This document shows, one piece after another, positions 12,607 through 14,982 of a stretch of DNA of 64,000 nt (its first letter is position 1; every line of letters starts with the position of its first letter). Made by a program: the position numbers and the translations under genes. This stretch comes from Desulfobacteraceae bacterium (GTDB lineage: Bacteria; Desulfobacterota; Desulfobacteria; Desulfobacterales; RPRI01), in contig JAABQB010000008.1 of assembly GCA_011391695.1 (NCBI GenBank), positions 2,719 to 66,718 on the forward strand, in the 5' to 3' direction. The notes under the pieces are model-generated. The model was not told the origin of the DNA, ran no database searches, and saw nothing but the letters and a program-made list of their open reading frames with translations.

Positions 12607-12682
12607 TGGTGGAGATGAGGGGGTTCGAACCCCTGGCCTCGGCGTTGCGAACGCCGCGCTCTCCCAACTGAGCTACATCCCC
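12607..12682 (-). tRNA. tRNA-Ala (CGC)
   Basis: GGGGATGTAGCTCAGTTGGGAGAGC; anticodon arm CGGCG-TTCGCAA-CGCCG; ends TCCACCA. Confidence 0.95.
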
Positions 12683-12818: not shown

Positions 12819-14549
12819 ATGGGCTACAAGGTTATTCTTTCCGATGCTTTCAAGCGTTTTACACTGGATCAGGACAAGATAAAAACACCTGGTGAAACTG
12901 TTGAATATTTCAAAAATAAATTGAAAACGCTTGATCTTGACATTCTTGAAAGCACTGCAAGAATAGACAATGGCAGGCTTGGCATACCAGTATATTTCAG
13001 CAGATGCGGGAAAGACGCATCATCCATAACCGGAACAAAAAAACAGATGGGGAAAGGAGCCACACCAGCTCAGGCAGAAGCAAGCGCAGTTATGGAGCTT
13101 GCAGAAAGATTCAGCTTTTTCTCTTTTTGCAGGAATCCAGGCAATTTTTTCCATGAAAAATATATAAATATAAAGGAAAACGCAATATCCTTTGAAATGA
13201 TCGCAAGTTCGGTCCATGATTCTTCCGGAGATATAGAAAAAGCACGAAAGATATTCGAGAACATGACATTGAAATGGACATGGGCTTATAATCTTACAAG
13301 AAAGCAGGAAGTCCTTATCCCTTTCAACTGGTTTTATATGATCAACGAATTCAATGGCCCATCAGCAGGAAACTGCGTCGAAGAAGCATTAAGCCAGGGA
13401 ATATGCGAAATTATTGAAAGACACGTCTCGTCATTGATTAGCAGAAACAACCTTGATGTTCCGGGAATTGACCCTGATTCGGCCACCGACCCGATGGTTG
13501 TCGAAATGATAAATAAATATAGAGTTGCCGGAATAAGTTTACATATCTCGGACTTCTCCCTTGAAACAGGCCTGCCTACAGTAGGTGTGCTCGCTTATGA
13601 TCCGTCAACTTTTCCTGAAAAGAGTGAAATAGTATGGACAGCAGGAACAACGCCGGACCCGCAAAAGGCACTCAGCCGTGCGCTTACCGAAACGGCCCAG
13701 CTTGCCGGCGACTTCAATTCATATTCAAATTATGTTGCAAGCGGCCTTCCTAAGTATAAAAGAATCGAAGATGCTTCATATATAATAAATCCAAAGACAA
13801 CAAAAAGCATTCAGAGCCTGCCTGATCTTTCCGACAGCAATATAAAAGTGGAGGTTGAAAACCTCATATCTGTTCTTGCAAAGAACGGGATGGAAATAAT
13901 AGTTGTAAACACGACACATCCCGAGCTTCAAATACCGGCATTTTATACTGTTGTTCCAGGAGCTCATTTCAGGGAAAGAGCAATCGGGACAAGCGTTGGC
14001 TTGTTCTGTGCCAAGATAACTGTTGAAAACTTTAAACCTGAAGATGCAATCAATGAATTAACAAAGATCGGAGAAGCACTTCCCGGAAAGTATTATATAC
14101 ATTTTTATATCGGCCAGACTCATCTTTCACTAAATGATCCGGACTCTGCGCTTTCCAGCTTCAGACAGGCGATCGAACTGGATCCTCCCTTACAGGACAT
14201 TCCAAGCATATATTCATATATGGGTATATGCCTGAAAAATATGGGAAATTATAAAGAAGCCATCGATGTTCTGAAAAAAGGCGAGTATTACGATAACGAA
14301 CGCACGGATATTTATAATCTCATGGGGTTTTGCCACTTTATGCTCAAAGAACATGAAATGGCGATAGAGAATTTCAAGAAGGTTATTAAAATCGACCCCG
14401 GTTCGGCAATTGACTACGCAAACATTGCATCGAATTACCGTGATATGGGAGAAAATGAAAAAGCTATTTATTACTATAAGGTAGCGCTTGAGCTTGACCA
14501 TTCAATTGAGTTTGCCAAAGTATCTCTTGCCAGGCTGCTTCAGGTCTGA
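12819..14549 (+). CDS. YcaO-family ATP-dependent enzyme with C-terminal TPR repeats
   Basis: MGKG..QAEASAVMELAER, NGPSAGN..EEA...ICEIIERH and RALTE ATP-binding motifs. About four TPRs in the last ~150 aa. Confidence 0.88.
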   Translation: MGYKVILSDAFKRFTLDQDKIKTPGETVEYFKNKLKTLDLDILESTARIDNGRLGIPVYFSRCGKDASSITGTKKQMGKGATPAQAEASAVMELAERFSFFSFCRNPGNFFHEKYINIKENAISFEMIASSVHDSSGDIEKARKIFENMTLKWTWAYNLTRKQEVLIPFNWFYMINEFNGPSAGNCVEEALSQGICEIIERHVSSLISRNNLDVPGIDPDSATDPMVVEMINKYRVAGISLHISDFSLETGLPTVGVLAYDPSTFPEKSEIVWTAGTTPDPQKALSRALTETAQLAGDFNSYSNYVASGLPKYKRIEDASYIINPKTTKSIQSLPDLSDSNIKVEVENLISVLAKNGMEIIVVNTTHPELQIPAFYTVVPGAHFRERAIGTSVGLFCAKITVENFKPEDAINELTKIGEALPGKYYIHFYIGQTHLSLNDPDSALSSFRQAIELDPPLQDIPSIYSYMGICLKNMGNYKEAIDVLKKGEYYDNERTDIYNLMGFCHFMLKEHEMAIENFKKVIKIDPGSAIDYANIASNYRDMGENEKAIYYYKVALELDHSIEFAKVSLARLLQV

Positions 14550-14835: not shown

Positions 14836-14982
14836 ATGTCAAAAAAACATCCTGAATGCCCGCTATATAATCCATTAAATTGCAAGGAATATTACAATCC
14901 AAAGCTTTGCGCTTTTGTAAGAAAAGACAAGATATGTCTTAAAAAGAAGAAGCCAAAAACAAAAGCAAAAGATAAGGAATGA
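14836..14982 (+). CDS. Unannotated 48-aa Cys4/Lys-rich microprotein
   Basis: AGAAGGA RBS upstream; MSKKHPECPLYNPLNCKEYYNPKLCAFVRKDKICLKKKKPKTKAKDKE. Below the ORF-track length cutoff. Confidence 0.7.
   Translation: MSKKHPECPLYNPLNCKEYYNPKLCAFVRKDKICLKKKKPKTKAKDKE

Follow-up and report, generated by a model that had tools for sequence, protein, structure and literature searches.

What does a YcaO enzyme act on when its gene stands alone? The question is raised by a 64,000-nucleotide stretch of DNA from a Desulfobacteraceae bacterium (GenBank assembly GCA_011391695.1, contig JAABQB010000008.1, positions 2,719 to 66,718), referred to here as the window, in which an uninterrupted open reading frame (ORF) of 576 codons at 12819-14549 on the forward strand encodes a 576-aa protein (P0001) with a YcaO domain and a C-terminal TPR array. 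An initial annotation of this DNA had proposed that the TPR array recruits a folded protein for an uncharacterised modification in sulfate reducers, and had named no substrate. Its description of the gene is confirmed; its interpretation is partly supported, and the substrate indicated by comparative data is DsrC, which carries sulfur in dissimilatory sulfate/sulfite reduction, a process that drives much of anaerobic carbon and sulfur cycling, souring and corrosion. The explanation favoured here, tentatively and at somewhat less than an even chance, is a TfuA-independent, ATP-dependent modification of the peptide backbone, probably thioamidation, in the C-terminal arm of DsrC. DsrC is suggested as the substrate by comparison of sequences and gene order in three respects: the co-occurrence of the enzyme with dsrA, the adjacency of its gene to dsrC and the covariation of the DsrC arm with the presence of the enzyme.

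The YcaO-TPR protein and its family

The gene and its parts, in window coordinates, are the following:
12819..14549, + strand: complete coding sequence of the YcaO-TPR protein P0001 (ORF and translation; Pfam YcaO and TPR; one clade with 60 full-length relatives)
13041..13112, + strand: predicted N-terminal nucleotide/Mg-binding block KQMGKGxTxxQAxASAxMELxERF, aa 75-98 (family alignments; solved YcaOs)
13047..13964, + strand: YcaO domain, aa 77-382 (PF02624, E 1.7e-75; TIGR00702; Foldseek)
13362..13424, + strand: ATP-binding motif S182-x6-E189-x3-Q193-x3-E197-x2-E200-R201, followed by H202 ("ERH") (sequence; alignment with solved YcaOs)
13710..13754, + strand: conserved, poorly ordered loop DFNxxxNYVASGLPK, aa 298-312 (family alignments; model confidence)
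13995..14543, + strand: C-terminal TPR array, aa 393-575, 11 helices forming ~5 hairpins and a capping helix (Pfam TPR_1/2/8/12; DSSP of the model; Foldseek)

With 254.8 bits against a PF02624 cut-off of 25.7, P0001 is a member of the YcaO superfamily. The only NCBIfam model that it matches above cut-off is the generic YcaO-type kinase domain TIGR00702 (120.1 bits vs 75.65); the models for methanogen McrA thioamidation (TIGR03266; 127.1 bits vs 365), for cyclodehydratases of the thiazole/oxazole-modified microcin (TOMM)/SagD type (TIGR03604; 116.3 bits vs 219.25) and for the E. coli-type YcaO (NF040716; 67 bits vs 700, over residues 26-294 only) all remain below theirs.

The ATP-binding motifs, described as intact from the letters alone, are complete. 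Both the N-terminal block and the ATP motif can be aligned position by position with MJ1094, LynD, TruD, MusD and E. coli YcaO: the former matches GKGA...ERFS of MJ1094 and E. coli YcaO and contains E93, E96 and R97 of the E..ER block, and the latter corresponds to NGxxxGNxxxEAxxQxxxExxER of the solved YcaOs. The catalytic Glu residues are in register with those of solved YcaOs in the sequence alignment as well as by Foldseek. Invariant in both family alignments (A1 and A2) are K75, Q76, G78-G80, S89, A90, E93, E96 and R97 of the first block and E189, E197, E200, R201 and H202 of the second; for L94 and F98 this holds in A1 only, Q193 ranges from full invariance in one alignment to at least 90% conservation in the other, and S182 is kept by most members. 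The residue after the motif had been singled out as unusual, and it is: ERH is found throughout the YcaO-TPR family, ERD in the other structurally characterised YcaOs and ERY in E. coli YcaO.

An AlphaFold2 model built on 33 sequences (predicted local distance difference test score, pLDDT, 90.2; predicted template-modelling score, pTM, 0.86) comprises a YcaO fold followed by 11 helices, which form five TPR hairpins and a cap. Its Foldseek matches are LynD, MJ1094, MusD, E. coli YcaO and M. kandleri YcaO (E 1e-13 to 1e-18). The sole segment with a pLDDT below 50, residues 302-311, lies inside the conserved loop 298-312. Four residues of this loop, D298, F299, L310 and K312, do not vary in either family alignment, and Y305 does not vary in one of them and is conserved to at least 90% in the other; the loop may serve as a substrate or active-site lid.

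The C-terminal region distinguishes P0001 from the azoline cyclodehydratases LynD, TruD and SagD/TOMM. These share the YcaO fold and the ATP motif and provide the top Foldseek matches (4v1t, 4v1v), but they have an E1-like domain or recognition element (RRE) for ribosomally synthesised and post-translationally modified peptides (RiPPs), a Pro-rich C-terminus and adjacent tailoring and export genes, all without counterpart in P0001. Only ~75 aa precede its YcaO domain. At the other end, the chain past ...VPGAHFRER runs into the TPR helices and finishes in ...LARLLQV, with no Pro-rich (PxPxP) tail, a feature that reportedly defines the azoline-forming class. Pfam TPR models match residues ~405-575, and the C-terminal part superposes on consensus TPR proteins with a root-mean-square deviation of ~2 Å over ~181 columns (Foldseek), so that the replacement of the PxP tail by a TPR array holds. 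As part of the DsrC explanation, and with the same short-of-even confidence, P0001 would be a functional, cytoplasmic Desulfobacterota YcaO-TPR enzyme, as its motifs and its model suggest.

More than 5,800 database proteins match P0001, mostly equal in length, and ~136 genomes have matches that span query residues 1-575 at 34-72% identity; the full-length family comprises ~20 clusters at 50% clustering. The closest named relatives are Desulfonema and other Desulfobacterales metagenome-assembled genomes (MAGs). In an IQ-TREE phylogeny, the analysis that the initial annotation had suggested, all 61 full-length proteins fall into one clade (99/95 support) with P0001 nested inside. Outside this clade are a 485-aa paralog (Thermodesulfobacterium, Ca. 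Desulfofervidus) and, on a very long branch, E. coli YcaO. By these sequence comparisons, P0001 belongs to one well-supported Desulfobacterota clade of ~576-aa YcaO-TPR proteins (members ~570-620 aa). One member is represented by a split copy (G137:C39:830-2496; L148, L152), which extends over two adjacent frames (query 16-204 and 200-570) and points either to a pseudogene with a frameshift or to faulty assembly.

The clade probably includes DVU2210 of Desulfovibrio/Nitratidesulfovibrio vulgaris Hildenborough, since Desulfovibrio members (L060, L189; the former 38% identical over residues 1-573) fall inside it. DVU2210 has been described as a "YcaO-like TPR domain protein" (Zane, Wall and De Leon 2020, PMC7774982). 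Like P0001 it consists of a YcaO domain and a C-terminal TPR array in ~580 aa and stands alone in a sulfate reducer of the same phylum. The comparison of the two proteins was made through the 20-residue motif quoted for DVU2210, SAGNTEEESILQGSCELVER, which fits the YcaO-TPR family pattern, and orthology is deduced through the other Desulfovibrio members. The YcaO-TPR fusion is thus an already known architecture, and the family is biochemically unsolved.

Association of YcaO-TPR with the Dsr system

The distribution of the family was surveyed in 400 genomes drawn evenly from the phylum. A full-length YcaO-TPR ortholog is present in 136 of them and dsrA in 202; all but four of the carriers (132/136) also have dsrA, and only these 4 are found among the ~198 dsrA-less genomes. 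The genome of one of the four has a completeness of 61%, and each of the four has kin with dsrA in its genus or family. Within the sampled phylum, YcaO-TPR is in practice almost confined to dsr-bearing genomes. The co-occurrence is taken as a pattern and not as a statistic, because related genomes are not independent. Of the idea of an uncharacterised modification in sulfate reducers, the restriction to such organisms therefore stands, and the notion of an unnoticed architecture falls with DVU2210. Matches to "other YcaOs" in dsrA-positive non-carriers (E 1e-28 to 1e-40) turned out to be TPR-only and not YcaOs, and were discarded.

The source genome (2.8 Mb in 116 contigs, 97.99% complete) follows this distribution: its dsrA and dsrB lie on contig C72, and contig C35 carries a canonical dsrC. 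RimO is also encoded, and P0001 is the single YcaO. As had been noted for the locus, partners are missing. Across the source genome, there is no match to TfuA (PF07812) or to the E1-like cyclodehydratase partner (TIGR03603); its sole SagB-type nitroreductase gene lies on an unrelated contig.

The gene neighbourhoods were compared in 60 diverse YcaO-TPR loci across the family. No neighbour is universal, and dsrC is the one that recurs far beyond chance: it adjoins YcaO-TPR on the same strand at a distance of ~100-250 bp in 16 of the 60 loci (5 upstream, 11 downstream), drawn from 11 families and from no fewer than three clades that are separate in the enzyme tree. Coordinates from the genome-wide search add nine adjacent pairs, so that dsrC adjacency is seen in at least 25 of the 136 carriers. 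In Thermodesulfobacteria, it is the short (485-aa) YcaO paralog that lies beside dsrC, in four genomes.

This paralog has a shortened TPR region (L061:17251-18708, - strand; G285, G311, G198), and the full-length copy in the same genome sits with a NIL-domain ferredoxin gene and not with dsrC, which looks like a division of labour after duplication. The ferredoxin represents a second recurrent context of the family (7 loci, 3 families), in which the gene of a NIL-domain di-[4Fe-4S] ferredoxin overlaps YcaO-TPR downstream, often together with that of an MnmA-type tRNA 2-thiouridylase.

Several further, lineage-specific neighbours were noted; a METTL21-type methyltransferase gene is not among the recurrent ones of the 60 loci. 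Downstream of the YcaO-TPR/dsrC pair, 8 loci encode a protein of ~520-600 aa that begins with a signal-peptide-like stretch and matches no Pfam family, ~0.1-3.5 kb past dsrC (L058, L178, L180, L182-L186, L188), followed in 6 loci by a RimK-like ATP-grasp gene. An EF-G paralog gene lies upstream of YcaO-TPR in 6 loci, and in families f100, f86 and f51 a gene for an RNase D-like protein (3'-5' exonuclease and HRDC) is located directly upstream on the same strand in 8 loci (L160-L162, L164, L168, L170, L177, L179), with a divergent Smr-domain gene alongside.

The association with the Dsr system might also reflect a different target: another Dsr protein or partner of DsrC, such as DsrAB or DsrK, could be modified, or YcaO-TPR could be an ATP-dependent assembly or repair factor, its adjacency to dsrC being due to co-regulation. 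The strong co-occurrence with dsrA would suit such a role equally, TPR domains often scaffold complexes, and in family f41 YcaO-TPR, dsrAB and dsrC follow one another in this order within 10 kb; furthermore, DVU2210 is among the genes mutated in D. vulgaris lines that evolved in syntrophy, without sulfate respiration. This alternative is unlikely: it is dsrC itself, and not dsrAB or dsrMK, that is the most persistent neighbour, and the feature of a Dsr protein found to track the enzyme is the DsrC arm, in a comparison confined to DsrC sequences.

A target in translation appears improbable. On this account the thioamide would be placed on a translation factor or on a ribosomal protein, whether uL16 or another, and sulfate reducers would be favoured as hosts only through their sulfide supply. 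The precedent is E. coli YcaO, which needs no TfuA and only ATP, Mg and sulfide to thioamidate Met82 of ribosomal protein uL16 in its folded state (Rice et al. 2026, PMC13063428). Its overall layout resembles that of P0001: in 586 aa (PDB 4Q84-4Q86), a YcaO domain is joined to a ~150-residue C-terminal TPR-like domain, and neither TfuA nor an adjacent precursor is present. Among the solved YcaOs, it alone gives a full-length Foldseek alignment, and hhalign relates it to the YcaO-TPR family with 99% probability over 420 columns (~25-27% identity). Translation-related neighbours recur in the family (the EF-G paralog, MnmA and the RNase D-like protein), and the window's own gene lies among housekeeping genes. 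On the other side, the score with the E. coli-type NCBIfam model is less than a tenth of its cut-off, and E. coli YcaO branches far outside the family; its C-terminal domain is no canonical TPR by sequence, and its kind is found in Pseudomonadota whether or not sulfur is respired. All organisms have ribosomal proteins, but YcaO-TPR is missing from nearly all dsrA-negative relatives. The isoelectric point (pI) differs as well: the strong acidity of uL16-type YcaOs (pI ~4.4) is complementary to basic uL16 (PMC13063428), whereas P0001 has a pI of 5.36 and most of 20 family members examined lie at 5.2-5.4. As an indicator of a basic, ribosomal substrate, pI was set aside as uninformative, the family being only moderately acidic.

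The C-terminal arm of DsrC as candidate substrate

The third line of evidence for DsrC comes from its own sequence, which was aligned for 31 carriers, 10 members of dsrA-positive families without the enzyme and 6 non-carriers with close carrier kin. The stretches at issue are ...PSGPGKGACKMAGLPKPTGCV and the arm peptide region ELFPSGPGKGACKMAGLPKPTGCV. The DsrC proteins of carriers all end in GPGKGACKMAGL (31/31), and every carrier and every recent non-carrier reads ...LFPSGPGKGACKMAGL[P/A]KPTGCV; the distant non-carrier families read GPAKGACK[LVI]AGL (10/10). Two positions of an otherwise invariant arm thus switch with the enzyme, Gly vs Ala and Met vs Leu/Val/Ile. Gly/Met is found in the crystallised DsrCs of D. 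vulgaris, Desulfomicrobium norvegicum and D. gigas; the archaeal outgroup, Pyrobaculum DsrC (PDB 1ji8), has Ala/Val, as does E. coli TusE. Because the outgroup has Ala/Val, the Gly/Met state looks derived. This covariation of the arm with the enzyme is suggestive, not proof.

In a DsrA tree built from tblastn segments, the families without the enzyme fall at two to three separate points; f55 and f65 are among them and nest beside the window's clade. Family f34 appears twice, in different deep clades (rows L228, G024, and L234, G195), which indicates lateral replacement of dsrAB within this family; co-evolution tests on Dsr genes must allow for such transfer.

DsrC could be modified by YcaO-TPR in the following manner: Like all YcaOs, the enzyme would bind ATP/Mg and phosphorylate the oxyanion that arises when a nucleophile attacks a backbone amide carbonyl. 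The substrate would be a folded cellular protein and not a RiPP precursor, namely DsrC at its flexible C-terminal arm, and free sulfide, which is abundant in these cells, may act as the nucleophile to give a backbone thioamide. The TPR array may hold DsrC, dimerise the enzyme, or both. Thus, of the original idea that the array recruits a folded protein, a protein rather than a RiPP substrate is likely; recruitment by the array stays conjectural because the TPR-like domain of E. coli YcaO dimerises.

Candidates for the modified residue are the two derived ones, Gly of GPGKG and Met of CKMAG. The known protein thioamides are at Gly in McrA and at a Met before Gly in uL16, and the Met thioamide of uL16 passed as oxidation in routine proteomics (PMC13063428). 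A Met thioamide on DsrC would be nearly isobaric with oxidation and would mimic it in the same way. That the DsrC arm bears a so far unseen modification, most likely a thioamide at one of these two residues, is possible but on the doubtful side.

Thioamidation is suggested by the lack of azoline-type features, by a slightly closer similarity to TfuA-independent thioamidases and by the sulfur-transfer neighbours. MJ1094 is the best-scoring solved YcaO by sequence profile (140 bits, E 7e-40), ahead of TruD (126 bits) and LynD (121 bits), and reaches Foldseek TM values of 0.74-0.79, normalised to the target; the methanogen structures are PDB 6PE3/6PEU for MJ1094 and 6CI7 for M. kandleri YcaO. The McrA glycine YcaO of these species is reportedly TfuA-independent and sulfide-using. 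Its substrate is central to the energy metabolism of the host, as is proposed for YcaO-TPR; the methanogen enzyme differs from P0001 in its length (~385 aa) and the absence of a TPR domain, and McrA is not expected in the source bacterium.

The phenotype of DVU2210 offers another reading, in which there is no protein backbone target: ATP would be used on a small oxyanion or metabolite, as in molybdate adenylylation or phosphorylation, or the protein would be a regulatory ATPase. In a sat-deletion strain of D. vulgaris, the S195R exchange or the deletion of DVU2210 confers molybdate resistance; the exchange lies within the ATP motif (PMC7774982). A second route of molybdate sensitivity is the one phenotype on record; it fits a small-molecule reaction, as does the position of the resistance mutation, although it does not reveal the biochemical function. 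This reading is nevertheless quite improbable: the target of every characterised YcaO is a peptide or protein amide, E. coli expressing DVU2210 shows no molybdate sensitivity (PMC7774982), and the TPR array, the adjacency to dsrC and the covariation of the DsrC arm would be left unexplained.

A number of observations weigh against DsrC thioamidation. (i) In the window, the YcaO-TPR gene is unlinked to dsr genes and receives no contextual support, and no dsr gene lies near it in 80 related Desulfobacterales loci. (ii) About a third of the dsrA-positive genomes (~70/202) do not carry the enzyme, which is therefore dispensable for sulfate/sulfite respiration; the DVU2210 deletion strain respires sulfate normally (PMC7774982). 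(iii) The covariation of DsrC is confounded by phylogeny, many other DsrC columns also differing between the groups, and all non-carriers could be one organismal clade because dsrAB is laterally transferred. (iv) The chemistry is not readable from the profile scores because that of MJ1094 lies only marginally above those of TruD and LynD. (v) The TPR-like domain of E. coli YcaO mediates dimerisation (PMC13063428), and the authors of the DVU2210 study favour molybdate adenylylation (PMC7774982). (vi) A literature search yielded no DsrC structure or paper that reports a thioamide or a link to a YcaO.

The modification of DsrC is an attractive and directly testable hypothesis, and it is unproven. 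A knockout strain and an in vitro protocol for stand-alone YcaOs are already available, and crystals of DsrAB-DsrC are deposited as PDB 3OR1/3OR2, 2V4J and 2XSJ. If it is true, DsrC would be the third protein thioamide after McrA and uL16, extending protein thioamidation beyond methanogens and enterobacterial ribosomes, and a hidden layer would lie on a pathway at the centre of global sulfate respiration that is deemed mechanistically mapped. A conserved orphan enzyme family with thousands of related public sequences would be given a function. Molybdate serves as the standard "specific" inhibitor of sulfate reducers, and its second, Sat-independent target could then be accounted for by the enzyme. 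If the link with DsrC is wrong, the YcaO-TPR gene would still be a well-defined marker of one Dsr-system lineage.

Genomic setting and the Cys-rich microprotein

In the window, the neighbours of the YcaO-TPR gene are housekeeping genes, in line with the initial annotation, which had recognised no adjacent RiPP tailoring or export genes. The upstream flank, on the opposite strand, holds rpoD, dnaG, hisA, a lipoprotein gene, hisB and tRNA-Ala(CGC), and the downstream flank a 48-aa Cys-rich ORF, yqgE/algH, ftsB, murJ, lptE and leuS. The tRNA-Ala gene (12607-12682, - strand) lies between hisB and YcaO-TPR and is separated from the start codon of the latter by a 136-nt AT-rich spacer, which presumably holds its promoter. 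A search of genome contigs for related loci gave Desulfobacterales only (62-94% identity), and its view ends within the phylum. A window neighbour as partner of the enzyme was rejected, since the synteny of hisB, YcaO-TPR, variable genes, the 48-aa ORF and yqgE is restricted to the order and no neighbour is retained phylum-wide.

The 48-aa ORF, here termed cys48, is the following feature:
14836-14982, + strand: cys48, a four-Cys, Lys-tailed microprotein of 48 aa, MSKKHPECPLYNPLNCKEYYNPKLCAFVRKDKIC... (ORF with a ribosome-binding site, 286 nt downstream of YcaO-TPR)

In most related Desulfobacterales loci, identity over its first 29-35 residues is >90%, above the conservation of the flanking genes; it belongs to no Pfam family, is usually found beside yqgE/algH and is often separated from YcaO-TPR by variable genes (2-7 kb).

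Such a small neighbour calls to mind a RiPP-like pathway, in which YcaO-TPR would mature a small peptide, for example cys48, to an azoline or thioamide product. The ORF is genuine and strongly conserved, and in 40 of 100 related loci, nearly all from Desulfobacterales, it follows the enzyme gene on the same strand. Set against this, cys48 occurs in 15 of 401 genomes vs 136 with the enzyme and in at least one genome without it (G112), and it is often megabases away from the enzyme gene, or displaced to the side of yqgE. For a typical RiPP core the peptide would be too well conserved, and it carries a poly-Lys tail; an E1-like or RRE partner is missing along with the Pro-rich tail, and no dehydrogenase, protease, exporter or variable precursor adjoins the YcaO-TPR gene in the window. 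This pathway is very improbable, and cys48 was dismissed as a general substrate of the family; a lineage-specific role is still conceivable.

A unit related to the second recurrent context of the family is present in the source genome, where it stands apart from YcaO-TPR. On contig C116 (L145:1032-2557 onward), an operon with overlapping stop codons encodes a 142-aa NIL-domain di-[4Fe-4S] ferredoxin, a 366-aa MnmA-like tRNA 2-thiouridylase and a radical-SAM methylthiotransferase resembling MiaB/RimO. YcaO-TPR is fused to the front of this ferredoxin(-MnmA) unit in Thermodesulfobacteria and in families f103 and f49.

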